Origin: a virus | Length of the DNA: 64,000 nt | IMG/VR virus record: IMGVR_UViG_3300031111_000011 | Coordinates: 1 to 64,000 of that record | Strand: one strand, 5' to 3' | In this document: positions 4,020 to 36,173 of the stretch, one piece after another | Layout: every line of letters begins with the position of its first letter | How positions within the stretch are numbered: position 1 is the first letter of the stretch | Translations under genes and position numbers: made by a program | Notes under the pieces: model-generated | What the model was told of the DNA's origin: nothing | The model's database searches: none | Seen by the model: the letters and a program-made list of their open reading frames with translations, nothing else

Positions 4020-4439
4020 ATGGTATCAGCCCAGATAGCGGAGAAGATCCAAAAAGTCCACGCACTTGCCGAACGCGGCATCAACGGGGAAAAGGCAGCA
4101 GCAGAACGGCTGCTTGCCAGCCTACTCACCAAGCACGATGTCACCCTGGAGCAGGTGGGCATCTTCAATGCCAAGCGATCCTGGCACACATTCTCTTTCC
4201 AAGACAAACAACAGAAAGCTTTTCTCTCTCATATCATCGCAGCAGTAGTAAAACGGAAGTATAGTGCGGAGATAAATGGGAAGAAGTTTTTTGCATGGAT
4301 GACTGAAGACGAGGCCACAAACGCACGGCTTGCTTACGTTAAAGCGAAGAGATACTATAACCGGGAAGTAAAGTCTGCAAAAAACAGAACAGCGAATATG
4401 ATCATCAACTCACTCTACACCAAAGGAGAAGCACAATGA
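4020..4439 (+). CDS. hypothetical protein (139 aa)
   Basis: SD taggaggagctaATG. Confidence 0.55.
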   Translation: MVSAQIAEKIQKVHALAERGINGEKAAAERLLASLLTKHDVTLEQVGIFNAKRSWHTFSFQDKQQKAFLSHIIAAVVKRKYSAEINGKKFFAWMTEDEATNARLAYVKAKRYYNREVKSAKNRTANMIINSLYTKGEAQ

Positions 4440-7248: not shown

Positions 7249-8028
7249 ATGGAAAAACTCAGAGAGGCAATGTCCAAGGTGCTACGAGACGTAGGCGAAG
7301 GGTACGAACTGTTCTTGCTGGTTACTTACCACAGTCAGACCACTGGGGTCACCATCTTGGACAAGGATCTGACCATCCTCTGGTACAACCCATATGTCCA
7401 AAAATACTTTGGCCTTGAGTTCATTAACACTAATTACCTTGACAGGTTTCCTGGGGAGCAGAGAGAGGCCACGAAGAGTCAACTGCGGCAAGCAGAAAGG
7501 ACCGGGGTCAGTGATCCTGCGCTCCTTCAGCCCCCAGGTGTTGAGATGGTTGTCGAAAGGCGCATCTGGGCAGTCTCAGGCGGGTACATCGCCGCATCCT
7601 ACGACCACACCGTACTCACTCAAGCAGAACAACGCACCAAGGATGTACAGACCACACTGACCCTCTTAGCTGAGGCGCGGGAGGGGCTGATACGGGATGC
7701 CCAACTCAAGACACTGGATATGATGGAAACTCACTGCAAGGCAATCTGCGGCAAATATGGGAACCGAAGCCCGTATGAGTGCAAGTCGAGAAAGAAAGTG
7801 CTGGCTGAGATCCTGGCAGGTAGGCCCAGGCTCCAGACCACACTCACTGACACTGAACTGGAGGTGGCTCGGCTCTACCAAGCGGGTCATCGGAGAAAGG
7901 AGGTTGCCGAGATCCTCGATGTGTCTGAGCATACGGTAAAAAATCATAGTACCTCCATCAGAAAAAAGCTTGGCATGAACAACCCAAGTGTGTCCCTTAT
8001 TGAGTATCTTCAACGGTTTACCTTATAG
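7249..8028 (+). CDS. LuxR/FixJ-family transcriptional regulator with N-terminal PAS-like sensor domain (259 aa)
   Basis: C-terminal HTH TDTELEVARLYQAGHRRKEVAEILDVSEHTVKNHSTSIRKKLGM matches the LuxR-type HTH signature; the N-terminal ~120 aa have PAS-like composition. Confidence 0.7.
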   Translation: MEKLREAMSKVLRDVGEGYELFLLVTYHSQTTGVTILDKDLTILWYNPYVQKYFGLEFINTNYLDRFPGEQREATKSQLRQAERTGVSDPALLQPPGVEMVVERRIWAVSGGYIAASYDHTVLTQAEQRTKDVQTTLTLLAEAREGLIRDAQLKTLDMMETHCKAICGKYGNRSPYECKSRKKVLAEILAGRPRLQTTLTDTELEVARLYQAGHRRKEVAEILDVSEHTVKNHSTSIRKKLGMNNPSVSLIEYLQRFTL

Positions 8029-8177
8029 GACCGGATTAGGACCAGAATGGGACTTAACAAAATATTCTGGCATTGTTAAGTATTTCCTAATCAGGTCGGA
8101 ACCCAGTGATTTAGAACCTTTGGAAGACGGAAGGAGGCAGACGCTCACTTAGGTCGATCTCCCATAAATGGTACACC

Positions 8178-8207
8178 TTGACATACGGAGATGTGAGAAG
8201 GTACAGT
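8178..8207 (+). promoter_or_regulatory. sigma70-like promoter TTGACA-N17-(G)TACAGT
   Basis: Consensus -35; the spacer contains the half-site aTGTGAGAAg of the palindrome family. Confidence 0.4.
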
Positions 8208-8268: not shown

Positions 8269-8628
8269 ATGGAGATCCAAAAGAAAAAGGCCATCAAGAA
8301 TGTTCTCACTGCTTGCAAGCTCATCCGCAAGGAATTCGGTGACCTCCCCTACCCCCAGTTAATTTGTCTGCTGGAGGTCATGGTCGAGGAAGGGATTACA
8401 AAAAACCAAATCGGGGCAAATAACGATCCGACGATGCCAGTAAGCTCTATCAACAGATATGTTGCGAGGCTCACAGACGAGCACGAGCGCAGAAACGCAG
8501 CAGGAAAGCGGGTTCCCGGTCCCCTGACAGTGGATCGAGATCCTGACCTTCCCCAACGTCACCTCGTGAGTCTGACGTCTTTTGGCAAGTTGTTTCGGGA
8601 AGCCCTGGTCAATGAAATGGAGGCTTAA
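8269..8628 (+). CDS. putative winged-helix DNA-binding protein (119 aa)
   Basis: SD aaagggagtcaagaATG; helix-rich small protein downstream of a promoter and nested inverted repeats. Confidence 0.45.
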   Translation: MEIQKKKAIKNVLTACKLIRKEFGDLPYPQLICLLEVMVEEGITKNQIGANNDPTMPVSSINRYVARLTDEHERRNAAGKRVPGPLTVDRDPDLPQRHLVSLTSFGKLFREALVNEMEA

Positions 8629-8865: not shown

Positions 8866-8898
8866 TGAGGAGGGGTTGGCACCTCTCCTCTTTTTTTC
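8866..8898 (+). terminator. rho-independent terminator (gaggagg...cctctcctc + T7)
   Basis: Stem followed by ttttttt; immediately precedes palindrome copy 2. Confidence 0.6.
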
Positions 8899-8906
8899 TC
8901 TTTAAC

Positions 8907-8922
8907 TTCTCATATCTAAGAA
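8907..8922. promoter_or_regulatory. palindromic element TTCTCA-tatc-TAAGAA (family copy 2)
   Basis: Between the terminator and the SD/ATG of 8937. Confidence 0.5.
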
Positions 8923-8936
8923 GGAGGAAAGCGACT

Positions 8937-9134
8937 ATGTCTATTTGTGATCGGTGTGCGACCGGGTGTTGGACAGCCCCGAGTGTCCGTTGTCAGGCTT
9001 GCAATGCAGGTAGTCTGTTCATTCCCAATGGGGAACCCCACAAGGTGATGCCCCCGGTGCTTCACAAGGAAACCGAGACGTTTGGGTGGATTCTCCGCAA
9101 ACAGCTTCGGGAGAGATGCTACGATGCAACTTGA
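8937..9134 (+). CDS. Cys-rich small protein (65 aa)
   Basis: SD aaggaggaaagcgactATG; CDRC...C..C...C motif. Confidence 0.5.
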   Translation: MSICDRCATGCWTAPSVRCQACNAGSLFIPNGEPHKVMPPVLHKETETFGWILRKQLRERCYDAT

Positions 9135-10465: not shown

Positions 10466-10719
10466 GAATTCAACTCACTCCAGAGGAGATCGACGGACTG
10501 AAGACGTGGTTGGCGTACCCAAAGAAGGTCCGCAGAGGGGAATGTCCGTTTGTCTTTGTGCCGGGGAATACCTGTGCTCGTATCTGCCGCATGGTTTTTC
10601 CGGGTGATGAACTCGGCCTGTGCCCCTGTGACCAAGAGGGCGCAGACCATAAAAAAATCTATGAAGTTGCACGAGAAGGTGCGGAAAGGGGGTACATCAC
10701 AATTGGACTCGGACATTAA
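10462..10719 (+). CDS. hypothetical Cys-containing protein (85 aa)
   Basis: ATGA overlap; internal Met of listed ORF 10375-10719. Confidence 0.45.
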   Translation: MRIQLTPEEIDGLKTWLAYPKKVRRGECPFVFVPGNTCARICRMVFPGDELGLCPCDQEGADHKKIYEVAREGAERGYITIGLGH

Positions 10720-11713
10720 TGGCACGGTGATTTTTCTGACACCGTTTGGATCGCATCTCTACGGTACATCCACTCCGGAGTCGGATCTGGACTACAAGGG
10801 GGTGTATCTGCCGACAAAGGAGCAGATCCTGATCGGGAAGATCCCCAAGACTATCACTCGAAACACCAAGGTCGGAGAGGGGAAGAACAGCAAGGAAGAC
10901 ATTGACTTTCAACTTTATTCTCTCCCCTACTTTGTGGACCTTCTGGTCCAGGGTGAAACGTCGGCTATCGACATGATCCATGTCCGAAAGGATCAAGCTC
11001 TCGTGTGGACGGATGAGTGGGAACGGCTGCACCGCAACCGTCACATGAGCTACAGCAGAAATATGAAGGCGTTCGTCGGGTATGCCCGTAAACAAGCGGC
11101 CAAGTACGGGGTCAAAGGCAGTCGCCTTGCAGCCATGCAAGACGTCCTTGAATACCTGATGGCCTATATCCAGAAGGAGATTCTGTATGATTATGAACGT
11201 GATACCAAACTTCGAGACGTATGGGATGATCTTCCTGATGGTGATCATATTCATCGTCTTGATCCGACTGATCGAACTCCTTATCGCATGTATCAGGTCT
11301 GTGGGAAGAAGTTTATGGAGACAGTCAAGATTCGAGAAGTCTACGCTTCGATCAAGAAGTCCTATGATCAATACGGTCACCGGGCAGAACTGGCGAAGAA
11401 GAATCAGGGCATCGACTGGAAGGCAGTATCCCACGCACTCCGTGCGGCTTACCAACTGGTGGAAATCTTTGGGTCCGGGGATCTGGCCTTTCCACTCGCT
11501 GATGCGGCTTATCTGCGGAAAGTGAAGGAAGGCTCACTGGACTGGACCTCCTGGGTTCAACCCCACCTGGAGGAAATGATGGGCCGGGTGGAGTGTATGG
11601 CCTCTCTCTCCAAATTCCCAGAACAAGTGGACCGGACCTTCTGGAACAATCTGACTATCGACATCATGGAAACGTGGTTACTTACTCAAACTGTAGGAGG
11701 TGAATTATGCTGA
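10661..11713 (+). CDS. nucleotidyltransferase (Pol-beta/minimal NTase fold) of unknown specificity (~350 aa)
   Basis: TPFGSHLYGTSTPESDLDYKG fits hG[GS]-x9-13-D-x-[DE]; a third acidic motif EDIDFQLY lies ~45 aa downstream; start uncertain (ATG 10661 overlaps upstream gene). Confidence 0.55.
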   Translation: MKLHEKVRKGGTSQLDSDINGTVIFLTPFGSHLYGTSTPESDLDYKGVYLPTKEQILIGKIPKTITRNTKVGEGKNSKEDIDFQLYSLPYFVDLLVQGETSAIDMIHVRKDQALVWTDEWERLHRNRHMSYSRNMKAFVGYARKQAAKYGVKGSRLAAMQDVLEYLMAYIQKEILYDYERDTKLRDVWDDLPDGDHIHRLDPTDRTPYRMYQVCGKKFMETVKIREVYASIKKSYDQYGHRAELAKKNQGIDWKAVSHALRAAYQLVEIFGSGDLAFPLADAAYLRKVKEGSLDWTSWVQPHLEEMMGRVECMASLSKFPEQVDRTFWNNLTIDIMETWLLTQTVGGELC

Positions 11714-12774
11714 AGAACGTGACTATTTGTGGCTACAACGTGCGTGAAATCAATCTGGTACTGGCCGAGGACAACACCCCGCTTTACTCTGTGGGAGATC
11801 TCATGATGCCCATGGGGTTCACCCGCTACTCTGCGGCATCCAGGGTCAGGTCCATCCCGGAGCTTACCCACACCAAAATCAAGCTGCCCTCCACGGCCCA
11901 GGCGATTCATGTGGTGACCCCGGAGGGTGTCCTGGCCTTAGCCGAGACGGGGAAGTGTCGTACCAATTTCGTTTCGGAATTTCGATCCTATTGCCAGAAG
12001 GAGGGCATCCCCCTGCCCGATCCGGAAGTCACGCCGGATGGTCCCGCCGTCTTCAACGGCATCGAGATCACCTTCGAGGACGATGTCCTGGTGAGCCTGA
12101 CGGACATGTGGAAAGCGGACGGATCTCGTCAGGCCAAGAAACCCGTCCACTTCCTGAAAACGGATGGGACTGTGGAGTTTATCGAACAAATTCGGGAGGA
12201 AATAAAAGGTAAGGAATCTTACCTTTTACGATCTATCCCTGGTCGAGGTGGTGGAACCTACGCTCACTGGAAGATCGCTGTCCAGTATGCGGCTTTCCTC
12301 AGCCCCAAGTTCGCAAGCTGGATGGCCGATCTGGTCCGGGTCCGGTTCATCGAGATCAACGATCCGGAGCAGGGTGCCAAGCTGTACCGGGAACGTGCGA
12401 TCACCGACCGGATGAACAAGACCGGCTGCTCCCGTGAACAGGCAATCCACTATTTCGAGAAGAGCCTCGTCGCACGAAAAACGGTTTCGTCTCAGATCTG
12501 CCGGTTCGTTCCCAATGCGAGGAAACATATCGCTGAGATCACGGATCATCTCAATATGGGCTTTATCGGAATGAGAGCCCAGGACATCAAGAAAACCCGT
12601 GGGGTTTCCCAGACCCGTGAATCGTTTACCCTTGCGGAGCAGATGGGGGTGGCGTTTCTGGAACAGTGCATGATCGATCATATCGATCAAGTGAGATACG
12701 AAGCTGACCCGTACCACCTGCGGGATATGGCGTACTCCAACGGGCAAAAATGCCGAGCCATGATGGTGCGCTAA
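11707..12774 (+). CDS. Bro-N + KilA-N domain protein (antirepressor-like, 355 aa)
   Basis: N-terminal Bro-N-like LYSVGDLMMPMGF; central KilA-N-like GTYAHWKIAVQYAAFLSPKFASWMADL; SD ggaggtgaattATG. Confidence 0.6.
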   Translation: MLKNVTICGYNVREINLVLAEDNTPLYSVGDLMMPMGFTRYSAASRVRSIPELTHTKIKLPSTAQAIHVVTPEGVLALAETGKCRTNFVSEFRSYCQKEGIPLPDPEVTPDGPAVFNGIEITFEDDVLVSLTDMWKADGSRQAKKPVHFLKTDGTVEFIEQIREEIKGKESYLLRSIPGRGGGTYAHWKIAVQYAAFLSPKFASWMADLVRVRFIEINDPEQGAKLYRERAITDRMNKTGCSREQAIHYFEKSLVARKTVSSQICRFVPNARKHIAEITDHLNMGFIGMRAQDIKKTRGVSQTRESFTLAEQMGVAFLEQCMIDHIDQVRYEADPYHLRDMAYSNGQKCRAMMVR

Positions 12775-12794
12775 AAAAAATCGGGTTTCACCCC

Positions 12795-12824
12795 TTGACA
12801 ACTTACCAGATGTGATTATATTAT
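12795..12824 (+). promoter_or_regulatory. sigma70-like promoter TTGACA-N17/18-TATTAT overlapped by inverted repeat CCAGAT...ATCTGG
   Basis: Consensus -35; AT-rich -10 flanked by a 6-bp inverted repeat (operator-like). Confidence 0.45.
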
Positions 12825-12854
12825 ATCTGGTTTCGGGAAATAGTAATTAACTAA

Positions 12855-12881
12855 CAGACCCTTGAGGGTCTGTGTTTTTTT
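12855..12881 (+). terminator. rho-independent terminator (cagaccc ttga gggtctg + T7)
   Basis: Perfect 7-bp stem plus tgtttttttt; lies ~35 nt downstream of the promoter. Confidence 0.65.
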
Positions 12882-12890
12882 ACCTTCAAC

Positions 12891-12906
12891 TTATCAAATC
12901 TGAGAA
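12891..12906. promoter_or_regulatory. palindromic element TTATCA-aatc-TGAGAA (family copy 3)
   Basis: Between the terminator and SD aaggagg of 12918. Confidence 0.5.
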
Positions 12907-12917
12907 CAAGGAGGATT

Positions 12918-13223
12918 ATGAAAGAGTGTAACCGTTGCGGGAACCGGGAGTGTGACTTCATTCACGCTCCCAAGGAGCCGAAGGGCAAACCCAAAATGAG
13001 CTTTCCGAAGCTCCGGAAAGCCCCTCCAAAGGGGATCGCCCATGTTATGGGGCTTCCGTGCCCCATTTGGCGAAAAATCGACCCGATGCACAACCCTCTG
13101 TGGGAGAACCTGGACTCGGCCACCATCGTCAAGCTCCGGGATCTGCGGAAGGGGCTCGGCACACAGCGAAAAAACAAGGAGTGGAAAGGAGGCAAGAAGC
13201 GTAAACTTTGGAAAAACAGGTAG
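12918..13223 (+). CDS. hypothetical basic protein (101 aa)
   Basis: SD caaggaggattATG; Lys/Arg-rich. Confidence 0.55.
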   Translation: MKECNRCGNRECDFIHAPKEPKGKPKMSFPKLRKAPPKGIAHVMGLPCPIWRKIDPMHNPLWENLDSATIVKLRDLRKGLGTQRKNKEWKGGKKRKLWKNR

Positions 13224-14434
13224 TCTGTCTCCGTGGGCTGCTGGATCACGATGCGTACCTCCGCTACGGTCCAGCCCTCCACGGGCTTAAGGACACTGAG
13301 CGTGAAATCAAACAGATCTTGACAGCTATCCAGCAGTACTACAAGCGGTATCCTGAACAAAAGGCCATCTCAGTGGATGAACTGAGGGTCTTTTTCCACC
13401 AGCAGCATCCAGCACTCAAGGACAAAGATGTCTTTGACGTTCTGTTCGACCAGATCCAACACCTTGACATCTCAAATCCCGACCTATTGGAAGACGCACT
13501 GAGGGACGTAGTTGAGCAATATTACGTCGGAAAGCTTTGTGCTGTCGGACTCCCGTGTCTCAATGGGGAGTCCACAGGGGTCATCGAGAAAATGAAGGAA
13601 ATTCTCGAAGAGGGTCTTGAGAAGATGAGTAAGACCGGTGATCAGGACGATAACCGGTGCAATATGGATCTGGATTACCTACTCGATGAGACGTTCAAGA
13701 ACGGGCTCTACACACCTTTGAGGGATCTGCGGTCCCTCCTTGGGCCTATCTACCCAGGCACACTGGGCCACATCTTTGCACGTCCGGAGACAGGTAAGAC
13801 TTCGTTTGCTTCAGCGATGGCATCTGCCTTTGCTTATCAAGTGCGTGACACCTCCGACATCATCCTCTACCTCAACAATGAAGAGGACAAGCGGCGTATT
13901 GCACTTCGCATCTGGGTTTCCATGATCGGGCAACCGATCCAATTTCTCGACGGAAACCGAGAAGAGGCAAGGAGAATTTGGAGCGAACGAGGTGGTGATC
14001 GGATTGAAGTCATTGGTGGAGTCACACACATCTCGCAGGTCGAACAGTACATCAGTGAGTTCAGACCCCGTGCGGTGTTTGTTGACCAGGGGCCGAATGT
14101 TTCAATCCCTGGTGATATGTCCGGGACGGACAAGCTTACAAAGCTATACAAGACCTACCGGAAACTCGCAGGGAAGTATGAAACAATCTTCATCTCCATC
14201 GGACAGGCAGACAGTCAGGCTGAGAACAAACAATGGCTCACAATGAACAACATCGATTCCAGCAAGGTGGGTATTCCTGGCGCATGTGACTACATCATTG
14301 GCGTAGGGATGAAAGACGATCCGGGTATGGAAGAGATGCGGTACATCAACCTGCCGAAGAACAAACTCACTGGGCAAAAGGGAAGACTCGTCTGTAGGCT
14401 GGATGTTAACACGTCCCGGTACGTTTCTGTTTGA
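13208..14434 (+). CDS. replicative DNA helicase (DnaB/T7 gp4 helicase-like RecA-fold ATPase, 408 aa)
   Basis: Walker A ARPETGKTSF; Walker B-like FVDQG; TTG start overlapping upstream gene. Confidence 0.65.
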   Translation: MEKQVVCLRGLLDHDAYLRYGPALHGLKDTEREIKQILTAIQQYYKRYPEQKAISVDELRVFFHQQHPALKDKDVFDVLFDQIQHLDISNPDLLEDALRDVVEQYYVGKLCAVGLPCLNGESTGVIEKMKEILEEGLEKMSKTGDQDDNRCNMDLDYLLDETFKNGLYTPLRDLRSLLGPIYPGTLGHIFARPETGKTSFASAMASAFAYQVRDTSDIILYLNNEEDKRRIALRIWVSMIGQPIQFLDGNREEARRIWSERGGDRIEVIGGVTHISQVEQYISEFRPRAVFVDQGPNVSIPGDMSGTDKLTKLYKTYRKLAGKYETIFISIGQADSQAENKQWLTMNNIDSSKVGIPGACDYIIGVGMKDDPGMEEMRYINLPKNKLTGQKGRLVCRLDVNTSRYVSV

Positions 14435-14449
14435 TTTTTTACCATTTAC

Positions 14450-14465
14450 TTCTCACATTTGAGCA
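14450..14465. promoter_or_regulatory. palindromic element TTCTCA-catt-TGAGCA (family copy 4)
   Basis: Immediately upstream of SD taaggagag. Confidence 0.45.
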
Positions 14466-14478
14466 TAAGGAGAGTCAG

Positions 14479-14646
14479 TTGGCAGGAAAGCAGAAGAACA
14501 GCAAGAAGCCCAATGATACTCCCGCCCGTCGCCAGTACAAGCTGGAGAAACGAGCGGAGAAGAACAAGGAGCGGAGAGCAAAGCGTCAGGCGAAGCTCGA
14601 AGCAAAACACAAAGCCAAAAAAGAAAGGAGAAATGCTGATGATTGA
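14479..14646 (+). CDS. hypothetical highly basic mini-protein (55 aa, TTG start)
   Basis: SD taaggagag + TTG; KR-rich; overlaps next gene start. Confidence 0.3.
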   Translation: MAGKQKNSKKPNDTPARRQYKLEKRAEKNKERRAKRQAKLEAKHKAKKERRNADD

Positions 14647-15355
14647 GTTCAATAAAGGAGACAGGGTGGCCGTCAAGGATCTTGACATGTCCAATATTCT
14701 GTACTCGGTGTGTCCTGAGATGAAGCGGCTTCCTGGGAAGGAAGGCAAAGTCCTCGACACCTACCCCGTCTACAGCAGGGACGGCGCTCGGGTGGATTTC
14801 GACGGAGCAATCTACACCATCTACCTGGACGACCTACGGAAGGTTGAAACCTCCAAGAATCGCTTCAAAGACGGTGAACACGCTTTCGTGATCGGATTCC
14901 GAAATTCCCAGGCTGCTGGCATCCCCCTCACGGATGCCTTGAAAGCCCTCCGGAACAAGATTGTTCGATGCGCCGTGGGCAACGATGCTGTGGGCACCAG
15001 CAAGGTTTTCATCCAGCTTCCCACCGGGGCAACCCACCTGATCCATGCCGATGACCTGTGTGATCCGGAACAGATCGAGAAGGTCATCTACTACTACAAG
15101 CGGGACAAGAAGGGGAACCCCGTGGAAACCATCTGTCTCCTGATCAAGGACGGGGGGATGCACCGTGGTCGGTCCAAGTGCAATCGGGATGCCGGGGACA
15201 TCTTTCTCAAGAAGGAGGGCCGTCGGAAAGCTCGTGAACGTGCTGAGTTTGCCGCCCAGACCCAGTCGTCGGCCCGGTTCGCTCGTGGCGACCAGTTCAT
15301 GTTCGAGTACAAAACCAAACTCACCCCTCTGGAAAAGGAGATTGTCAAAGGATGA
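14633..15355 (+). CDS. hypothetical protein (240 aa)
   Basis: SD aaagaaaggagaaATG; trimmed from listed ORF 14459-15355. Confidence 0.55.
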   Translation: MLMIEFNKGDRVAVKDLDMSNILYSVCPEMKRLPGKEGKVLDTYPVYSRDGARVDFDGAIYTIYLDDLRKVETSKNRFKDGEHAFVIGFRNSQAAGIPLTDALKALRNKIVRCAVGNDAVGTSKVFIQLPTGATHLIHADDLCDPEQIEKVIYYYKRDKKGNPVETICLLIKDGGMHRGRSKCNRDAGDIFLKKEGRRKARERAEFAAQTQSSARFARGDQFMFEYKTKLTPLEKEIVKG

Positions 15356-18165: not shown

Positions 18166-18181
18166 TTTTTTTCACTTGTCA

Positions 18182-18197
18182 TTCTCAAATCTGAGAA
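18182..18197. promoter_or_regulatory. perfect palindromic element TTCTCA-aatc-TGAGAA (family copy 5)
   Basis: 13 nt upstream of SD aaaggagg of 18210. Confidence 0.55.
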
Positions 18198-18209
18198 GAA
18201 AGGAGGTGT

Positions 18210-22916: not shown

Positions 22917-24823
22917 TGTTCCCAACGCTGTACCAGGAGTTCATCTACAAGCGAACCTATTCTCGGTGGCTGGATGAACTCCTTCGGAGAGAGGAGTGGG
23001 AGGACACGGTAGCTCGGTACCAAGAGTTCTTCCTGGACGGTAAACTCAAGGATATTCCCGATGCAGCTAAGGTGGAATTCCTTGAGGCTACCGGTGCAAT
23101 CTACAACCTCGAAGTTATGGGGTCCATGCGGACCCTGTGGACTGCTGGTCCTGCCTTGGCCCGTGAAAACATCTGCGGGTACAACTGTGCTTACAAGGCA
23201 GTCAATACTGTGCGAAGCTTCGCTGAGATCCTGTACATCCTGCTCTGTGGTACTGGGGTTGGGTACAGTGTGGAGCGGCAGGAGATCAACCAACTCCCTG
23301 AAGTCCCGCCTTACTTCTCCACTCCAGAACGCACCGTTGTGTTCTCTGATTCGAAGAAGGGATGGGCTGAGGGATTTCTCAAGTGGATGAACGCCCTCTA
23401 TAAGGGTGAGTTGCTTGAGTACGACCTCTCCCGAATCCGTCCTGCTGGATCACGGCTGAAGACCTTCGGGGGCAGAGCCAGTGGACCTGAGCCCCTCCAG
23501 GAACTTCTGGAATTCGCCAAACGCATTTTTCTCAGTGCCAAGGGACGGAAGCTAACGAGCCTGGAATGTTACGACATCTGCTGCAAGATCGCTGAGGTGG
23601 TTGTCGTAGGAGGTGTGAGACGGTCTGCCTGTATTTGCCTCACCAACCTGTCCGATGACCGGATGGCTAAGGCCAAGACGGGTGAGTTCTGGCTTCTCAA
23701 CCCCCAGAGATCCCTGTCCAACAATTCGGTGGCGTACACCGAGAAGCCTCAAGTGCGGAAGTTCATGAGTGAGTGGCTCAAGCTCATGGAGTCCCAGACC
23801 GGAGAGCGGGGGATCTTCAATCGAAGAGCAGCAGAGGTTGCTGTGCAGCGCACCCTACGCCGAAAGGGAGGGTTCGCTTGGGGCTGCAATCCTTGCGGGG
23901 AAGTGATTCTCCGTCCGTCTGGTCAGTTCTGCAACCTGAGCGAGGCGATCATTCGGGCTGAGGACACTCTTGAAACAATTCTCAAGAAGGTCCGATACGC
24001 AACCATCCTGGGTTGTGTCCAGGCCACACTCACTGCGTTCAAATTTCTGGGGAGTTCATGGACAGTGAACACCGAGGAGGAGCGACTCCTTGGGGTGTCT
24101 CTCACAGGTCTTATGGACCATCCAATTCTTAGTGAGGTGTCGGACAAGGCCAAGGCATGGCTTGTCAAGATGAAAGGAGAGGCCATTGAAACAGCGGAAA
24201 GGTGGTCGGAGATTCTTGGAATTCCGATGCCGAAAGCGATTACGACCGTCAAGCCGTCTGGAACAGTCAGTCAACTGGTTGACTCTGCATCCGGACTTCA
24301 CCCTCGCTTTGCTCCTTTCTATGTACGCCGGGTTCGTGTCTCTGCGACAGATCCTGTAGCGAAGATGCTTGTTGACCAGGGAGTTCCCTGTAGCCCTGAA
24401 GTCGGACAGGACACGGTAAGTCCATCCACTTGGGTCTTTGAGTTCCCGGTTAAGTCTCCGGACAACGCGAAGGTAGCCAGCGCAATCACTGCTCTGGAGC
24501 AGTTGGAGTACTGGCTGATGCTCAAACAGCATTGGTGTGAACACAACCCCTCTTGCACGGTCTATGTGGGAGAGGATGAGTGGTTGGAAGTGGGTGCATG
24601 GGTGTGGAAACACTGGGATGAGATTTGCGGTCTTACCTTCATGCCTCGCAGTGACGCAGTTTACAAACTTGCTCCTTATGAGGAGGTAGATGCGAGGACT
24701 TACTACGATCTTGTTGACGCTCTTCCTGACATCAATTTTGGTGAATTGTCTCGATACGAAACCGAAGACCTCACTGAAGGGAGCAGAGAATTCGCCTGTC
24801 AGGGAGGAGCTTGCGAACTATGA
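22916..24823 (+). CDS. nrdJ: ribonucleotide reductase, class II (adenosylcobalamin-dependent NrdJ-like, 635 aa)
   Basis: N-terminal FIYKRTYSRW; active-site GCNPCGEVIL (NPCGE); size typical of NrdJ. Confidence 0.8.
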   Translation: MFPTLYQEFIYKRTYSRWLDELLRREEWEDTVARYQEFFLDGKLKDIPDAAKVEFLEATGAIYNLEVMGSMRTLWTAGPALARENICGYNCAYKAVNTVRSFAEILYILLCGTGVGYSVERQEINQLPEVPPYFSTPERTVVFSDSKKGWAEGFLKWMNALYKGELLEYDLSRIRPAGSRLKTFGGRASGPEPLQELLEFAKRIFLSAKGRKLTSLECYDICCKIAEVVVVGGVRRSACICLTNLSDDRMAKAKTGEFWLLNPQRSLSNNSVAYTEKPQVRKFMSEWLKLMESQTGERGIFNRRAAEVAVQRTLRRKGGFAWGCNPCGEVILRPSGQFCNLSEAIIRAEDTLETILKKVRYATILGCVQATLTAFKFLGSSWTVNTEEERLLGVSLTGLMDHPILSEVSDKAKAWLVKMKGEAIETAERWSEILGIPMPKAITTVKPSGTVSQLVDSASGLHPRFAPFYVRRVRVSATDPVAKMLVDQGVPCSPEVGQDTVSPSTWVFEFPVKSPDNAKVASAITALEQLEYWLMLKQHWCEHNPSCTVYVGEDEWLEVGAWVWKHWDEICGLTFMPRSDAVYKLAPYEEVDARTYYDLVDALPDINFGELSRYETEDLTEGSREFACQGGACEL

Positions 24824-24966
24824 AAATGATTCTGGAGTACGTCGCAGGGATTTTTATCTCACTTGGGGCCATCATCGGAGCGGGTGCGGTGATGGTTATT
24901 GCAACTTTGGCCGCAACGTGGCCCTTTTGGGTTGCTCTTGCCTGTATCGTTTACATCTTCTTTTAG
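24820..24966 (+). CDS. small membrane protein (48 aa, 2 TM)
   Basis: ATGA overlap with RNR stop; wholly hydrophobic. Confidence 0.4.
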   Translation: MKMILEYVAGIFISLGAIIGAGAVMVIATLAATWPFWVALACIVYIFF

Positions 24967-24975
24967 GAGGCCAAC

Positions 24976-25080
24976 ATGACAATCGAACGCTTTATGGAGT
25001 GGGTCATGGTGGGGATCATCGTTGTTGCGGGGATCTTCATCACTCTCGGTATCGACTCACTCTCCAACATCCTGAGTTAG
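24976..25080 (+). CDS. small membrane protein (34 aa, 1 TM)
   Basis: SD ttttaggaggccaacATG. Confidence 0.4.
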   Translation: MTIERFMEWVMVGIIVVAGIFITLGIDSLSNILS

Positions 25081-25089
25081 GAGGTGGCC

Positions 25090-25329
25090 TTGAATCAGAA
25101 GGGATTCACTTTGATCGAACTGATGATTGTGGTTGCGATCATTGGGATCTTGGGCGCTGTGGCCGTCCCCAATCTCGTTTCTTACAAGCAGAAAGCGGAG
25201 TCGGCAGCACTGGAAATCAAGATCAACCGAGAGAACATGAAAAAGGCGGGGGAGGATCTGAGGGACACCTTCAAGTCCCTCCTCCCCCGGAAGACTTACT
25301 CGAACGAAGTTATTGTGACAAGGGAGTAA
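25090..25329 (+). CDS. type IV pilin-like (prepilin-type N-terminal methylation motif) mini-protein (79 aa, TTG start)
   Basis: MNQKG|[22 protein letters not shown] matches the prepilin leader + N-methyl-Phe + hydrophobic helix signature; SD aggagg 5 nt upstream of TTG. Confidence 0.55.
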
Positions 25330-25331
25330 CA

Positions 25332-25862
25332 TTGGCAATTGACAAAGACCAGATGCGAGATCTGGTTCGGGATGTCCTGATGTACCTGGACCCTGAGATC
25401 CCCTTCTCTGCTGATGCAGTGGAGTTGATCATGCTCACTATGGCTCAGGAATCCCACATGGGAACATACATTAAGCAGCTTGGTACAGGACCGGCCAAGG
25501 GTGTGGTTCAGATGGAACCCTCTACTGAGGAAGACATCTGGGACAATTACCTGCGGTACAAGAAGGATCTGGCAACTAAGGTACGTGCGCTCTATGCAGC
25601 CATGCAAATCGGGCGTGACTTTGAGCTTGATCCTCTTCGACACAACCTCGCCTACCAGATCGCCATGGCGAGGGTTCACTATCGGAGAGTGAGTGACCCT
25701 CTTCCCAAGGTCCATTTCCAACTTCAGTTTGAGGCTGATGGGATCATCACAGAGAACAGTGTGAAGCGACTCGCTGAGTATTGGAAGGAGCATTACAACA
25801 CACCACTTGGAAAGGGAAAACCTGAAGAGGCGGTGTACAACTATGTGAGGTTCGCTGTATGA
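25332..25862 (+). CDS. putative lytic transglycosylase/lysozyme-like protein (176 aa, TTG start)
   Basis: MAQESHMG (catalytic E-S), GVVQM and AYQIAMA resemble SLT-domain motifs; SD aagggag + TTG. Confidence 0.45.
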   Translation: MAIDKDQMRDLVRDVLMYLDPEIPFSADAVELIMLTMAQESHMGTYIKQLGTGPAKGVVQMEPSTEEDIWDNYLRYKKDLATKVRALYAAMQIGRDFELDPLRHNLAYQIAMARVHYRRVSDPLPKVHFQLQFEADGIITENSVKRLAEYWKEHYNTPLGKGKPEEAVYNYVRFAV

Positions 25863-26383
25863 GGAACTGCGATAACTGTCGGTACTTAGAGGTTTCTCTA
25901 CGGGATGAGCCGTGCTTCGGGTGTGTAGGGTACAGTAACTGGAAACCCGAACTCCCTCCCAGTGGAGAGGGACAGAAAGGACGAGAAGTAATCGTGAATA
26001 ACTGTGTTCTCCCCGACAGCGGGAAACGAGAAGGGTTCGATAGTGGATCGATTCGAGATAGCCGAGAAGGGAAAGGCCGGTACGATCTGATCAGCCCCTT
26101 CGCTCTGAAGCGGATCGCAGTCCACTACGAAAATGGTGCCAAGAAGTACGCTGACCGGAACTGGGAGAAAGGCCAACCGATCATGCGGTACTTCGACAGT
26201 GCCGTGCGTCACCTCTTCACATGGGTCACAGACAAACTCTGTGGCCGTCCCCATGCGGAGGATCACCTCGCTGCTGCGGCCTGGAACGTCATGGCAATGC
26301 TGGACCACGAGGAACGTATCGCTATTGGCCGACTCCCTACCGGGATCGATGATAGCCCTGGTCCTGCATGGAAGCCCGAATAA
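25859..26383 (+). CDS. hypothetical protein with N-terminal zinc ribbon (174 aa)
   Basis: CDNC...CFGC ribbon; segment RIAVHYENGAKKYADRNWEKG recalls phage dATP/dGTP pyrophosphohydrolase-associated domains (unverified). Confidence 0.5.
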   Translation: MRNCDNCRYLEVSLRDEPCFGCVGYSNWKPELPPSGEGQKGREVIVNNCVLPDSGKREGFDSGSIRDSREGKGRYDLISPFALKRIAVHYENGAKKYADRNWEKGQPIMRYFDSAVRHLFTWVTDKLCGRPHAEDHLAAAAWNVMAMLDHEERIAIGRLPTGIDDSPGPAWKPE

Positions 26384-26393: not shown

Positions 26394-26422
26394 GGAAGGG
26401 GCATATATTTTTTGCCCCTTCC
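26394..26422 (+). terminator. terminator-like hairpin GGAAGGGGCA-tatattttt-TGCCCCTTCC
   Basis: Perfect 10-bp stem with T-rich loop, immediately followed by palindrome copy 6. Confidence 0.5.
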
Positions 26423-26438
26423 TTCTCAATATTGAAAA
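26423..26438. promoter_or_regulatory. palindromic element TTCTCA-atat-TGAAAA (family copy 6)
   Basis: Directly upstream of SD aaaaggagg of rtcB. Confidence 0.45.
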
Positions 26439-26446
26439 GGAGGACT

Positions 26447-27661
26447 ATGGAAAAGGTCATGTTTTCATCAGGCAGAATCCCTGCCTACTCATGGTTACCA
26501 GTGGACAAACTGGAGGAAGGCGCTCTGGAACAGATCCAGGCTTGCACTGCCCACCCCAAGGCTTACCACCACATGGCTGTGATGCCCGACTGTCACCAGG
26601 GATATGGGATGCCCATTGGCGGTGTGGTTGCCCTGGACGGCGCAATCAGCCCCAACATGGTGGGGGTGGACATCGGCTGTGGGATGAGTGTGGTCCGCAC
26701 CAACGCCAAATTCGTTCACACTTATCAAATCAAGGAAATCCTGAACCGACTCAAGACCATGGTTCCTGTCGGTGAGGGGAAGTTTCGATCTGACCCCGTC
26801 TCCTGGCCCAAGTGGGTGGAGTATCTGGACAAGGTCAAGGAGCGTCCTGACTGGATGAAGGGCTCTAACTGGCATCGGTTCAAGTGCAGCATGGGAACTC
26901 TGGGAGGTGGGAACCACTTTCTGGAGCTTCAGCGGGATGAAGAGGGTTACCTCTACATGATGCTCCACTCCGGTTCCCGTGGCCTGGGGTACGCCATTGC
27001 CAAGTACTACAACGAACTGGCCCAGACCTACTGCGTCAACCTAGACATCCCCAACAAAGATCTGGCTTACCTGCCGACCGATCACAAGTGGGGGCAAGCC
27101 TACATCCGGGACATGAACTTCGCCCTGGCTTTTGCCAAGGAAAACCGCAGGGTCATGATGGATGCCTTCAAATTCGCTTTCTTCCACGTTCTTGGATCTC
27201 CTGTCCGGGAGGACATTGATGTTGTCGATGAGATCGACATCCACCACAACTACGCGGCATTGGAGCACCACTTCGGCAAGGATCTGTGGGTTCACCGGAA
27301 AGGCGCGACTTCGGCCCAGTCTGGACAACTGGGGATCATTCCCGGTTCCATGGGAACCCACTCCTACGTCGTCGCTGGTAAGGGGAACCCGGACTCCTTC
27401 AAGTCCTGCTCCCACGGTGCTGGTCGAGTGAAGGGTCGGATGGCCGCTACTCGTGAACTCGACCGGATGGAGCAGGAGAGGAAGATGGACGGCATTGTCT
27501 TTGACGGGTTCAAAACCCTGAAGAAGGGTAAGCTGAAAGGTGCGTATGACCTGGGCGAAGCCCCTGATGCCTACAAAAATATTGATACTGTCATGTGGCA
27601 CCAGGGGGATCTGGTGGACGTGGTAGTAAAACTCAAACCGATAGGAGTCTTGAAAGGGTGA
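26447..27661 (+). CDS. rtcB: RNA-splicing ligase RtcB (3'-phosphate/5'-OH RNA ligase, 404 aa)
   Basis: RtcB signatures HMAVMPDCHQGYG, GGNHFLELQ, MLHSGSRGLG, CSHGAGR; ATG 4 nt after SD. Confidence 0.9.
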   Translation: MEKVMFSSGRIPAYSWLPVDKLEEGALEQIQACTAHPKAYHHMAVMPDCHQGYGMPIGGVVALDGAISPNMVGVDIGCGMSVVRTNAKFVHTYQIKEILNRLKTMVPVGEGKFRSDPVSWPKWVEYLDKVKERPDWMKGSNWHRFKCSMGTLGGGNHFLELQRDEEGYLYMMLHSGSRGLGYAIAKYYNELAQTYCVNLDIPNKDLAYLPTDHKWGQAYIRDMNFALAFAKENRRVMMDAFKFAFFHVLGSPVREDIDVVDEIDIHHNYAALEHHFGKDLWVHRKGATSAQSGQLGIIPGSMGTHSYVVAGKGNPDSFKSCSHGAGRVKGRMAATRELDRMEQERKMDGIVFDGFKTLKKGKLKGAYDLGEAPDAYKNIDTVMWHQGDLVDVVVKLKPIGVLKG

Positions 27662-28638: not shown

Positions 28639-28937
28639 AGCTGATCTGCTGTCCCTCTTGTTGGGACGTGTTCAAACTCGCCAAGGAAGAGCGCACCTGC
28701 TCATGCGGACGGTGCTCAGGCAGGTACCTCAACAACACCTACGCCGAGACAAATGGTGAGGGAATCAACCTCGCCATTGGCAACGGGTCACTCCTGCAAG
28801 CGGCTTACAACCTCGACCACTTTGCGAAGGACGCAGAGCGTCACGAGTTCATCGACCACAACCCCGTGATCTGTTGGGTCCGTCCTCCAGAAGGACCGGG
28901 AAACCCACACACCACTGTACGAAAGGAGGAATCATGA
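28635..28937 (+). CDS. Cys-rich protein (100 aa)
   Basis: ATGA overlap; CCPSC...CSCGRC cluster. Confidence 0.5.
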   Translation: MKLICCPSCWDVFKLAKEERTCSCGRCSGRYLNNTYAETNGEGINLAIGNGSLLQAAYNLDHFAKDAERHEFIDHNPVICWVRPPEGPGNPHTTVRKEES

Positions 28938-30322
28938 ACCCCATTCTGAATACTGACTCTTACAAAGCGAGTCATTACAGGCAGTACCCTGAAGATGTGG
29001 CCTGGGTGAGTTCCTATATCGAAGCACGGGGTGGAAAATACCCTGAGACGGTTTTCTTCGGGCTGCAAGCCTTCCTGAAGGAGTACCTAAGCAAACCCTT
29101 CACCCAGGCTCATATCAATGAGGCAGAGGACTTCTGGGAGGCTCACGGCCTCCCGTTCAATCGGGGAGGGTGGGAATACATCCTCGCCAGATACCGGGGC
29201 TATATGCCTATTTTGATCCAGGCGGTGGATGAGGGCTCGGTGGTTCCCACTGGCAATGTTCTTGTTCAGATTATTAACACTGACCCTGAAGTTCCCTGGA
29301 TCACCAGCTACGTGGAAACCGCTCTGCTCCGGGCAATCTGGTACCCCACCACGGTGGCTACCCTTTCCCACTTCTGCAAGCGAGATCTCTACAACTACTG
29401 GAAGGAGTCGAGTGACGCTCCTATTGAGTCCCTGGACTTCAAACTTCACGACTTCGGTGCTCGTGGGGTGAGTTCCCTGGAATCTGCTGGACTGGGTGGG
29501 ATGGCCCACCTCGTCAACTTCAAAGGCACCGATACGGTGGAAGGGGTTCTCGCTGCAAGACGGTACTACAACGAGCCCATGGCAGGATACTCAATCCCTG
29601 CTGCCGAGCACTCCACCATCTGCTCCTGGGGCGGTCCAGGACGAGAAATGGATGCCTTCCGAAACATGATCAGCCAGTTCGGTGGAGACTATCCACTGAT
29701 CGCTGTGGTCAGCGATTCGTACAATATCTGGGACGCAGTGGATAACAAATGGCCTTACCTGGATACCGAGATCAGTGCCAGTGGGTCCACCATCGTGGTC
29801 CGTCCGGACAGTGGAGATCCCCACATCGTACCTGTCGAGGTGATCAGCCGTCTCATGCAGAAGTTCGGATTCACGGTCAATAGCAAGGGCTACCACGTCC
29901 TTCCGGATCGAATTCGAGTTATCCAAGGCGACGGGATTACCGGCGATAGCCTGAATCGCATCCTGTTCAACCTCCGGATGAAGCGTCTCAGCATCGACAA
30001 TATTGCCTTTGGTATGGGTGGTGGGCTGCTCCAGCAGATCAACCGGGATACCTGCAAGTTCGCCATGAAGTGCAGTGCGGTTGCTGGCAAGAGCAACCAA
30101 TGGCAACCGGTGTTCAAGCAACCTGTGGATCAGCCTGACAAGGTGAGCAAAAAGGGTCGGCTGAACCTGATCCGGAACTCGGATGGTGAGTTCGAGACGG
30201 TCCCGGAGAAGTGGGAAGAGTCGCGGGGGGTTATGCCCATCCGGAGCATTAACGGGCTCCGCTACCACACCACAACTTTCGAGGAAATCCGGGGACGGGT
30301 CCAGGAGCACCTCATTGCTTAG
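28934..30322 (+). CDS. nadV: nicotinamide phosphoribosyltransferase (NAMPT/NadV, 462 aa)
   Basis: MNPILNTDSYKASHYRQYPE N-terminus and overall length typical of NAMPT; SD aaaggaggaatcATG. Confidence 0.85.
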   Translation: MNPILNTDSYKASHYRQYPEDVAWVSSYIEARGGKYPETVFFGLQAFLKEYLSKPFTQAHINEAEDFWEAHGLPFNRGGWEYILARYRGYMPILIQAVDEGSVVPTGNVLVQIINTDPEVPWITSYVETALLRAIWYPTTVATLSHFCKRDLYNYWKESSDAPIESLDFKLHDFGARGVSSLESAGLGGMAHLVNFKGTDTVEGVLAARRYYNEPMAGYSIPAAEHSTICSWGGPGREMDAFRNMISQFGGDYPLIAVVSDSYNIWDAVDNKWPYLDTEISASGSTIVVRPDSGDPHIVPVEVISRLMQKFGFTVNSKGYHVLPDRIRVIQGDGITGDSLNRILFNLRMKRLSIDNIAFGMGGGLLQQINRDTCKFAMKCSAVAGKSNQWQPVFKQPVDQPDKVSKKGRLNLIRNSDGEFETVPEKWEESRGVMPIRSINGLRYHTTTFEEIRGRVQEHLIA

Positions 30323-30821
30323 AGTCGGAGTCTTTGTTGGCAGATGCCAACCTTTCCACAAGGGGCATGAGCAGATCATCCGTCAGATGCTCCATGAACG
30401 TGGAACAGAGCGGTGTGTCATTCTCTTGGGGAGCATCAATGCTCCCCTTTCCGCTAAGAACCCTTTCCCCTACCCCACTCGTTATCAGTGGGTGAAGAAC
30501 ACCTTCCAGTATGTCCATGTCTTGGGCATTCCGGACTTCCCCGACAATGATGACTACTGGCTCTTCCATATCATGCAAGTTCTCAAGCTCCCTTACGTGG
30601 AGAGTGTTGACCCTTATTTCTACGTAGGCAGTGAGAGAGACGGTCGGGTCTACCACGAGCGTGGATTCACAACCATGATCGTTCCGCGCAGTAAGCAGTA
30701 CAGTGGGACTGAGATCCGAAGACGGCTTGCAGCCGGTGAGGACTTCAGTGAATTGGTGAGCGACCCTGAGTACGCTCAGTCAGTGAAGAGTGTGTGGGAC
30801 ACTGTGAAACATGCAATTTGA
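30315..30821 (+). CDS. nicotinamide/nicotinate mononucleotide adenylyltransferase (NMNAT, NadM-like, 168 aa, TTG start)
   Basis: Nucleotidyltransferase (H/T)xGH motif VGVFVGRCQPFHKGH; size fits archaeal/phage-type NMNAT; only in-frame start preserving the motif is TTG 30315 overlapping the nadV stop. Confidence 0.7.
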   Translation: MLRVGVFVGRCQPFHKGHEQIIRQMLHERGTERCVILLGSINAPLSAKNPFPYPTRYQWVKNTFQYVHVLGIPDFPDNDDYWLFHIMQVLKLPYVESVDPYFYVGSERDGRVYHERGFTTMIVPRSKQYSGTEIRRRLAAGEDFSELVSDPEYAQSVKSVWDTVKHAI

Positions 30822-32087: not shown

Positions 32088-32251
32088 GCGAGAGTGAGTT
32101 GGACATTCTGATGAAAAGGTTAGAGCCCTTTGCAAAAGGACTCTTTTCGGGACAGGTCTGTGAGTGGCCCCAACTTAAGCCTCTTTTGGCAGATCTGTAC
32201 GGATATCTGGAAAGAGAAAAACGCAGGAAGGAGTTTGATGGAACGACGTGA
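32084..32251 (+). CDS. hypothetical protein (55 aa)
   Basis: ATGA overlap. Confidence 0.4.
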   Translation: MSESELDILMKRLEPFAKGLFSGQVCEWPQLKPLLADLYGYLEREKRRKEFDGTT

Positions 32252-35940: not shown

Positions 35941-36107
35941 TCTACCTCCTTTCGTGGGGTAACAAACCCCGGTTTGATTGTGACTTTCTTGTGACTTTTG
36001 GCCCGTCATGACTTACTGCAATAATTCAATTTTTCAAGTCTGGGCAAATATAACAACTCCGCAAACCTTTGTCAATAGCGAACTTCTCGTGTGTTATCAG
36101 TACCTTC

Positions 36108-36123
36108 TGCTCACATCTGAGAA
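36108..36123. promoter_or_regulatory. palindromic element TGCTCA-catc-TGAGAA (family copy 7)
   Basis: In the int-structural intergenic region. Confidence 0.45.
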
Positions 36124-36173
36124 GCTCGATTCGTTACCCCTGCGTCCAGAACCACTCACTCTAATTTACTCAA

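Follow-up and report, generated by a model that had tools for sequence, protein, structure and literature searches.

Phased T-tract/dyad elements as candidate repressor-gated terminators in a family of uncultured temperate podophages

In phage L5 and other Cluster A phages, a repressor bound to stoperators has been proposed to stop elongating host RNA polymerase and so to silence the prophage (PMC9283540). In the terminators of RNA polymerase I (Pol I), a hairpin and a T-rich tract are joined with a roadblock site, and the polymerase pauses in the T-rich tract 15 bp before that site (PMC12366685). Regulatory motifs of a further kind, those of phiEco32 gp36 and 7-11 gp47, are phage-specific, occupy conserved genome positions and differ between relatives (PMC8948821). 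Here we describe an element that can be compared with these systems. It lies on a 64,000-nt stretch of viral DNA (IMG/VR record IMGVR_UViG_3300031111_000011, positions 1 to 64,000), referred to as the window in this text, where a predicted promoter, a predicted terminator and a dyad follow each other at 12795-12917, in front of a helicase-polymerase module. We propose that this dyad and its copies elsewhere in the genome are DNA operators, and that a dimer bound there keeps RNA polymerase on the T-tract in front of each of them, which would turn these sites into repressor-gated terminators. We put the probability of this reading at roughly 45%. A sequence-only reading of the same DNA had listed the dyad as a palindrome behind the terminator; it is the key part of the arrangement, a putative phage-specific DNA operator and no passive follower.

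The dyad of the cassette (CTTATCAAATCTGAGAAC, 12890-12907, CTTATCA-AATC-TGAGAAC, 18 bp) belongs to a genome-wide set. An ENA contig identical to the window (0 mismatches in 18.6 kb) contributed 2,932 nt that bridge both window ends, giving a circular assembly of about 66.9 kb for the whole genome. The motif TTCTCAWATCTGAGAAG has 11 matches, with 0.5 expected, and a symmetrised weight matrix detects ten intergenic dyads at 14 bits or more (858, 904, 8906, 12890, 14449, 18181, 26422, 36107, 36244 and one behind a second promoter, PB). Weaker half-sites occur at three places, namely in the promoter spacer of a MarR-like gene (8188-8201), against the -35 element of PB and at the integrase start site. 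Six of the dyads are coupled to a run of Ts (8906, 12890, 14449, 18181, 26422 and PB), and each of these six has its centre exactly 17.5 nt from the last T. The T-tract always lies on the side from which RNA polymerase arrives, also at PB on the minus strand; the palindrome itself has no polarity, yet the side of the T-tract is fixed.

Related loci (L001 to L007 in our numbering) carry the element at syntenic module boundaries, that is, before the primase, before the helicase group and after PolA, with a motif that differs from phage to phage. It reads GTTGCCC..GGGCAAC in L002 and L003, CTATTAC-N6-GTAATAG in L004 and L005, GTCAACT-CAT-AGTTGAC in L006, GTTRMGAGTTGGTAAC in L001 and ATAYACATMTGRATG in L007. 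Despite these differences in sequence, the spacing in L001, L002, L004, L006 and L007 is 17.5 nt five times, 18.0 nt once, 18.5 nt three times and 20.5 nt once (9 of 10 within 17.5-18.5 nt). The constant point across phages is the dyad centre, the stem edge ranging from 7 to 9 nt. The 17.5-nt spacing is found again, with an unrelated dyad sequence, in L023, an unrelated integrative element. About half of the elements have no stable hairpin by the T-run (for example 14435, 18166, L002 8501, L004 3757 and L007 1631); the T-tract with its phased dyad thus forms the invariant core, and the hairpin is optional. The promoter-terminator-dyad gate looks like a feature common to a family of uncultured phages that differ in the sequence of their sites. 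A search of IMG/VR for the window operator itself in other phages (T6-N9-TTCTCA-N4-TGAGAA) returned 12 contigs, which we rejected as chance matches because each has a single copy.

Several properties of the dyads favour DNA sites for a dimeric protein rather than RNA hairpins. The copies conserve their sequence beyond what mere pairing would need. Seven internal arm mismatches are present among them, none of which is compensated and none of which is a G.U pair. The copy at 12890 has an A.G mismatch in its arms and retains only 3 bp when folded as RNA, and for most copies the folds of the elements close to a ribosome-binding (Shine-Dalgarno, SD) site are no better than those of shuffled sequences (z = -0.02 to -1.6). 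The core GAGTTGGTAAC of L001 is asymmetric and stands in either orientation in front of genes that share a strand. We base the DNA-site reading on this sequence conservation, the uncompensated mismatches and the 3-bp fold, together with the copies that stand in contexts other than an SD and the constant distance to the dyad centre. Pairing between the U-run and the SD, as an RNA structure or thermometer, was considered as well and discarded; such pairings are predicted, with energies no better than shuffled.

The promoter of the cassette, PA, consists of TTGACA at 12795-12800 followed by either TATATT at 12817-12822 (spacer 16) or TATTAT at 12819-12824 (spacer 18), each combination matching the consensus at 11 of 12 positions; the -10 region as a whole, TATATTAT, spans 12817-12824 on the plus strand. 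The near-consensus sigma70 promoter that had been read here as TTGACA-N17-TATTAT is thus present, with a spacer that was off by one. An A8 tract resembling an UP element lies at 12773-12780 on the same strand, exactly 14 nt 5' of the -35 element, and its first two As are part of the TAA stop codon of the KilA-N gene; PA occupies the gap between this stop and the following open reading frame (ORF). By standard sigma70 geometry, transcription is predicted to start at the G at 12829-12830, 7-8 nt past the -10 element. Sites matching at least 11 of 12 positions occur four times in the 66.9-kb genome, with 0.29 expected, and not one of 200 dinucleotide shuffles reached four. All four are intergenic: PA, the integrase promoter (TTGACA-17-TATATT, 11/12, 36047-36075, minus strand), a plus-strand early promoter in the 2.9-kb gap between the window ends, and PB, on the minus strand of this gap. 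We regard PA as a genuine strong sigma70-type host promoter for the helicase-polymerase module because of its 11/12 match, the excess of such sites (4 against 0.29), their intergenic positions, the design shared with PB and a syntenic site in L001. Here and throughout, we infer promoter and terminator activities from sequence. As had also been read, an inverted repeat overlaps the promoter: ACCAGAT-N13-ATCTGGT (12805-12831, arms 12805-12811 and 12825-12831) covers the spacer, the -10 element and the predicted start, and only its right arm would be transcribed. It was rejected as a repeated operator, being unique in the window save for one chance match in coding sequence, and no claim is made for a degenerate dyad in the PA spacer (12802-12819), which falls below the top 30 matches of the weight-matrix scan.

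The strong terminator announced for the downstream side is there too. The hairpin ACAGACCC-UUGA-GGGUCUGU (12854-12873, plus strand, -14.3 kcal/mol predicted) has an 8-bp stem, ACAGACCC/GGGTCTGT, with five GC pairs and a 4-nt loop, and is followed by a G and a T7 tract (seven Ts, 12875-12881) that serves both as the U-tract of the terminator and as the upstream half of the T-tract/dyad element. It is predicted to be a canonical intrinsic (Rho-independent) terminator. Behind it stand, in the order first noted, the dyad, the SD sequence AAGGAGG (12908-12914) and an ATG at 12918 (together 12908-12920, plus strand), where a 101-aa Cys-rich protein begins as the first gene of the helicase-polymerase module. 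The predicted PA transcript runs from about 12829 to about 12880 and is thus some 50 nt long, which corrects the earlier figure of about 45 nt; the short RNA of PB would measure about 38 nt. The 24-nt PA leader is AU-rich and essentially unstructured, and folding gave no alternative attenuator or antiterminator structure. An Rfam search with the short RNA and its leader found no family or aptamer at E<=1.

We could observe the same arrangement at the head of the late genes. In the 2.9 kb between the window ends (L009 5125-5221, minus strand of this gap), promoter PB heads the operon of tRNA and late genes, and here A8-N14-TTGACA-N16-TATATTAT is followed by a leader of about 12 nt, a GC hairpin, TTTTATTTTT, 8 nt and the perfect dyad CTTCTCAAATCTGAGAAG. 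The geometry A8-N14-TTGACA-N16-TATATTAT is common to PA and PB. They share the A8 tract, the -35 and the -10 element only, with no pause-inducing element and nothing like a Q-binding element (QBE) in common, and the PB leader contains no -10-like element. Four nt past the PB dyad begins tRNA-Glu, which opens a series of 21 tRNA genes upstream of the terminase and structural genes; since what follows this dyad is a tRNA and not a ribosome-binding site, the dyad does not act as a translational signal. Promoter, terminator and dyad in this order make up a repeated design, found at the head of the replication module and at the head of the late module. A syntenic cassette exists in L001, whose helicase is 44% identical. 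There, the best promoter-like site of the 20-kb locus, TTGACA-16-TATTGT, is syntenic with PA and lies between a Bro-N/KilA-type gene and a small Cys-rich gene, followed by a hairpin, a T9 run, the L001 motif and an SD.

Besides the two cassettes, the window contains further gates, all on the plus strand. At 8867-8923, a hairpin (8867-8890), a T7 tract (8891-8897) and a dyad (8906-8923) precede the SD of the primase module and end the transcription unit of the MarR-like gene, so that the terminator-palindrome-ribosome-binding-site order that the sequence-only reading gave for 8866-8936 is borne out. For the third place where it saw this order, 26394-26446, the dyad (26422-26439) and the SD hold up in front of RtcB; the GC hairpin at 26394-26422 is not a canonical terminator because the T6 run (26408-26413) sits within its loop and not after it (gate 26394-26439). 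Two gates have no hairpin. One, at 14435-14466, consists of a T6 run (14435-14440) and a dyad (14449-14466) followed by an SD; the other, at 18166-18198, directly follows the PolA stop codon, has a T7 tract (18166-18172) and a dyad (18181-18198), again followed by an SD, and is syntenic with a gate of L002 at 13297. It is ambiguous where the gene behind the 14449 dyad starts (window 14431-14660). The SD at 14468-14474 belongs to a TTG at 14479, which is in frame with a 55-aa ORF, and a 298-aa ORF listed from 14459 is in a different frame and probably starts at ATG 14633.

Other copies stand apart from gene starts. Two are located in the left non-coding region (858-875 and 904-921), and two around the end of the late operon (36107-36124 and 36244-36261, the latter a perfect TTCTCAATATTGAGAA), where they flank a bidirectional terminator (36180-36213) upstream of the integrase promoter. 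A degenerate copy or half-site covers the integrase start site (36030-36047). The copies on both sides of 36180-36213, together with this degenerate copy at the integrase gene (int), suggest looping or insulation of int. A second conserved composite, in this case without a T-run, is seen in L001 (16971-17045) and L002 (14586-14650), in the order stop codon, AAAATTTAACC, 5-6 nt, the phage's own operator, about 10 nt, and a GC hairpin without a U-tract.

As a candidate for the operator-binding dimer, we identified a MarR-family winged-helix protein of 119 aa (8269-8628, plus strand). A profile built from five MarR-like members matched PDB structures over positions 12-108 (3bpv at E=1.2e-7, PcaV at 1.7e-6, SlyA at 1e-4, and also HosA and OhrR). 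Pfam MarR_2 scores in four of the five family members; the window protein by itself is not among them. A single-sequence AlphaFold2 model reached a predicted local distance difference test score (pLDDT) of 48 and was unusable. MarR proteins are dimers that bind (pseudo)palindromes of 16-20 bp, usually autoregulate and typically act as repressors. Homologues in L001 and L002 occupy the same place, two genes upstream of the first gate, and the recognition-helix region differs between the phages, as would be expected if their specificities differ. Upstream of the gene lies an operator copy in L002 (5834) and a half-site in the window, GAGATGTGAGAAGG (8188-8201), the latter in the spacer of a promoter-like site, TTGACA-18-TACAGT (10/12, 8178-8207, plus strand). 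In L023, where the gene order is integrase, a more distant MarR-like homologue and PrimPol, the MarR-like gene is immediately followed by a hairpin, a T8 run, the dyad ATGCCTCTAGGCAT and the SD of the following gene, and operator-like repeats abut a TTGACA upstream of it. From the promoter-like site at 8178 through the MarR-like gene and a 73-aa ORF to the terminator and dyad at 8867-8923, four consecutive features look like a self-contained immunity cassette in the lytic direction.

A short way upstream of the MarR-like gene, the 18-mer TCCCAYAAATGGTAMACC is conserved in the window (8160-8177), L001 (5873-5890) and L002 (5807-5824). It has been kept although the flanking DNA cannot be aligned and the proteins of the three phages are less than 30% identical, and its window copy directly adjoins the TTGACA of the site at 8178.

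An alternative candidate binder is a LuxR/GerE-type helix-turn-helix (HTH) regulator of 259 aa (7249-8028, plus strand). Neither in the related loci nor among phages was a homologue of it found. We also considered it as a sigma factor and rejected this, the matches being limited to region-4-like HTH domains with GerE as the best.

A repressor-gated terminator might work as follows. Transcripts from PA and from the KilA-N gene would reach the intrinsic terminator about 25 nt past the start. The dyad at 12890-12907 would be an operator for a phage-encoded dimeric regulator, most likely the 8269-8628 protein. When the operator is occupied, a polymerase on the T-tract would run into the proximal half of the dimer before finishing the tract; roadblock studies have shown that EcoRI-Gln111 stops E. 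coli RNA polymerase 14 nt before its site (PMC5499547). The blocked polymerase would be held on a weak rU:dA hybrid and released through the upstream hairpin, through instability or by a release factor, and the module behind the gate would be shut, either in the lysogen or whenever the regulator is abundant. With a free operator, the hairpin-less gates would be transparent, and those with a hairpin would act as leaky attenuators that set the expression level. Because the gate lies 30-50 nt from the start at PA and PB, a stalled polymerase would also occlude the promoter, and promoter-proximal roadblocks have been reported to cause promoter 'clogging' (PMC10310618). Which protein binds, and that it blocks rather than helps elongation, are points that we infer. 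A more far-reaching version appears doubtful to us, namely that a small MarR-family dimer placed 17.5 bp past a T-tract, with or without a hairpin, is a switchable terminator, a counterpart of the Pol I terminator; as a portable gate with operators that differ from one element to the next, it would lock replication and late modules both in a family of temperate podophages and in integrative elements unrelated to them.

The dyad-binder could also act positively, as Q of lambda or RfaH do, by making a polymerase that pauses on the T-tract resistant to termination; PA and PB would then be constitutive promoters silenced by their terminators, and the hairpin-less T-tract/dyad sites would be reloading points along the operons. 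Such DNA-recruited antitermination would suit the cassette that heads the late operon, as PR'-tR' does in lambda, and would give a sense to consensus promoters with UP-like tracts, which seem senseless if most of their transcripts are discarded; the strict phasing of T-tract and dyad would suit any protein contact with a paused polymerase. We nevertheless consider it unlikely. Scans of the complete 66.9-kb genome with Pfam, PHROGs and NCBIfam, which covered about 60 ORFs, and against the PDB detected no phage RNA polymerase gene, single-subunit T7-like enzymes included, no sigma factor, no Q, N or RfaH/NusG-like protein and no other antiterminator family. The dyad would be located downstream of the terminator to be suppressed, whereas known DNA-recruited systems have their site upstream of the pause or at it, MarR-family proteins are typically repressors, and PA and PB lack a common pause-inducing or QBE-like element. 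Control of the PR'-tR' type by Q, or a short regulatory RNA, had been the suggestion of the sequence-only reading. A designed promoter-terminator order is indeed what the PB cassette and the syntenic L001 cassette argue for; Q or N, a QBE and a small RNA (sRNA) found no backing, and lambda-like antitermination has no specific support. It is the hairpin-less sites and the strict phasing of the dyad to the T-tract that lead us to prefer a repressor-gated terminator or roadblock over antitermination of the lambda type. An explanation that we judge improbable to a similar degree takes T-tract plus dyad as the promoter of a phage-specific form of polymerase (host core with an unrecognised sigma factor or appropriator, or a novel polymerase) that starts at the right dyad edge, the upstream terminators merely insulating it. 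Phage-specific elements at syntenic positions are also what the promoters of phiEco32 gp36 and 7-11 gp47 show (PMC8948821). On the upstream side the geometry is constant, whereas the SD follows at anything from 0 to about 25 nt; the element lies immediately 5' of SDs and of a tRNA, and in L007 it is asymmetric and used in one orientation only. The core CTCA-WATYT-GAGAAG of the window and ACACATAT-G of L007 resemble promoters of the T7/SP6 type, which we count in favour of this explanation. What it fails to account for, apart from the polymerase or sigma gene that the scans did not detect, is the perfect symmetry of the dyad in five of six phages, which is not a promoter property, the L001 core that stands in both orientations before same-strand genes, and the copies at 858, 904, 36107 and 36244, which stand before no gene that they could drive. 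No -10-like element is conserved between T-tract and dyad, and some of these spacers are GC-rich. A sigma70 -35/-10 reading of T-tract plus dyad was rejected because no -10-like hexamer is conserved across the phages.

If the dyads instead worked as RNA hairpins in read-through transcripts, they could be nut-like boxA/boxB sites, RNase E sites with a protective 5' hairpin, or translational elements of the U-tract/anti-SD type. The order U-run, about 8 nt, hairpin and SD does resemble boxA-spacer-boxB, folds often pair the pyrimidine stretch past the U-run with the SD, and the perfect dyads of other phages would form hairpins. The copy at 8891 contains CUCUUUAAC, which matches what we take to be the core of the rrn boxA; it is the only copy with a boxA-like core. 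Against these stand the fold energies and the uncompensated mismatches described above, the conservation of the sequence itself, and a constant distance that refers to the dyad centre and not to the stem base. The element also lies past the terminator, where a nut site does not belong, and there is a copy before a tRNA as well as copies in promoter DNA, so that we rate RNA hairpins as quite unlikely. Finally, the product itself might matter, PA and PB making abundant RNAs of about 50 nt and about 38 nt that act in trans as sRNAs or serve as primers or activators of a replication origin beside the helicase genes. A strong promoter, a 24-nt unstructured AU-rich leader and a U7 terminator do make a classic sRNA shape, and the site lies beside the replication module. 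We hold this to be highly improbable: complementarity to the phage genome extends over 10 nt at most, a length that shuffled leaders reach too, the Rfam search gave zero matches, the leaders of the PA, PB and L001 cassettes have no common sequence, and the phased dyads and hairpin-less gates would be left unexplained.

Several points weigh against the repressor-gated terminator itself. The MarR-family protein is the most likely dyad binder by co-occurrence only, and in the window phage the LuxR-type protein could be the binder instead. A terminator at PB, ahead of late structural genes that need high expression, would favour a positive input such as antitermination, for which no factor was found. 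The footprint of a MarR dimer may stop the polymerase at the first Ts already, which makes the release step uncertain. Within one genome, the gates may be partly paralogous copies, whose spacing would then have been kept by descent. The L007 element is barely palindromic and always has a single orientation, and the dyad nearly always abuts a functional RNA start (SD at 0-9 nt, tRNA at 4 nt), as a promoter core or an RNA 5' element would. The finding is best described as a putative genome-wide and family-wide control by repressor roadblocks, similar to stoperators, which is new in its strict coupling to T-tracts and terminators.

The window represents a novel phage genome. Megablast of 11700-14500 against phage records gave no match, PolA, of family A, shares no more than about 35% identity with polymerases of known podophages, no relatives turned up when IMG/VR was searched with the helicase, and the closest helicase among 5.8 billion proteins has 45% identity. 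Genes on the plus strand (about 1540-34650) encode, among others, the LuxR-type regulator, primase, RlaP, the KilA-N protein, a DnaB-like helicase, PolA, RNR, RtcB, NAMPT and a ligase; the integrase (34648-36009) and an SU10/phiEco32-like structural module are on the minus strand. The phage is a temperate SU10-like podophage without an RNA polymerase of its own. Two long proteins of the minus strand showed no polymerase domain and zero PDB sequence matches: a 2235-aa protein of the virion module (36987-43694), which carries LPD38 and DUF7178 domains, and a 978-aa protein between terminase and portal (57109-60045), which has an InlB B-repeat domain. The 2.9 kb outside the window hold small ORFs and tRNA genes only. 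ARAGORN located the 21 tRNA genes among small ORFs, in window 62077-63735 and in the 2.9-kb gap (L009 5227-9570), and Rfam added one tRNA-like match at 62587-62659. Transcription from PB apparently covers these tRNA genes before it reaches the structural genes, and the set is large for a 67-kb temperate podophage.

We noticed further features of the gene content. Small Cys-rich proteins follow immediately after gates (window 12918-13223 and 8937-9134, L001 9664-9960, L004 about 4087-4340), and their CNxCxxRxCxxIHA motif is kept upstream of the helicase in the relatives. No family was detected for them; they may be zinc-binding partners of the helicase or primase. The N-terminal domain of a MazZ-like dATP/dGTP diphosphohydrolase (25859-26383) adjoins a 390-aa ORF (24690-25862) without a detectable family, and a sequence search against the PDB did not detect PurZ, the marker of 2-aminoadenine genomes. 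A set for RNA repair and NAD salvage is combined in this one phage, comprising an RlaP-like nucleotidyltransferase, an RtcB ligase, NAMPT with an NMNAT-like cytidylyltransferase and an ATP-dependent DNA ligase (10550-11713, 26447-27661, 28934-30821 and 32130-33398). The long non-coding left region (1-1540) contains three direct repeats (T/C)ATCTGACA with a 10-nt period (371-399), which share ATCTGA with the operator half-site. Such a half-site lies at 262-279, and hairpins resembling terminators at 93-117 and 1480-1503. The left region may serve as an origin, as an attP site or as the main regulatory region.

If the repressor-gated terminator is real, bacterial viruses use the termination logic of eukaryotic Pol I, with a roadblock, a T-tract and an optional hairpin, and the stoperator idea would reach past the mycobacteriophages to dimeric repressors of the MarR type. 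It would explain how temperate podophages that lack a polymerase of their own and have only three or four host-type promoters partition and silence long operons, and it would offer compact, orthogonal terminator parts that can be switched, each phage supplying one protein/operator pair. Should the effect prove positive instead, a DNA-bound factor that acts on the polymerase from just past a terminator would still be unusual.

Among the known systems, phiEco32 and 7-11 are close in their SU10/phiEco32-like structural module and in having phage-specific motifs at conserved positions; their motifs lack symmetry and serve as promoter elements for a phage sigma factor, whereas here the sites are dyads and the genome scans found no sigma gene. 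Lambda PR'-tR' is similar in that a near-consensus promoter is followed by an intrinsic terminator within tens of nt and then by a long operon, the late one in the case of PB. It differs in that our phage has no Q-family gene, no Q-binding element shared by PA and PB between -35 and -10 and no sigma-dependent pause signal, in that the protein site lies past the terminator, and in that PA controls replication genes and not late genes. The lambda N/nut system does not fit, the element following the terminator, its mismatches being uncompensated and its folds resembling those of shuffles. With MarR repressors, the 119-aa family shares the profile match and an operator-like sequence at its own promoter; at 119 aa it is shorter than the typical 140-150 aa or so, and its sites lie mostly within operons behind T-tracts, not over promoters.

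The stoperators of L5 are comparable in their distribution, with many phage-specific sites, some at promoters and most in short intergenic gaps before genes (PMC9283540). In our phage, ten intergenic copies and half-sites at three promoters were found, and each relative has its own motif. The L5 repressor gene, too, lies within the lytic transcription direction. The L5 sites are asymmetric 13-mers in one orientation, bound by a monomeric two-domain repressor, whereas here dyads of 16-20 bp are paired with a small MarR-family dimer as candidate, and we saw no gp71-like protein in the phage; a phased T-tract or terminator hairpin has not been described for stoperators, and host and phage type are unrelated. 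For the working of the gate, the terminators of Pol I with their roadblock proteins Reb1, Nsi1 and TTF-I differ in the polymerase, the domain of life and the Myb-like protein family, and the hairpin that is essential there is absent from about half of the elements here. They share the tripartite order of hairpin, T-rich tract and DNA-bound roadblock at a fixed short distance, and are the closest match to the way in which the gate may work, as an analogy of mechanism and not of homology.

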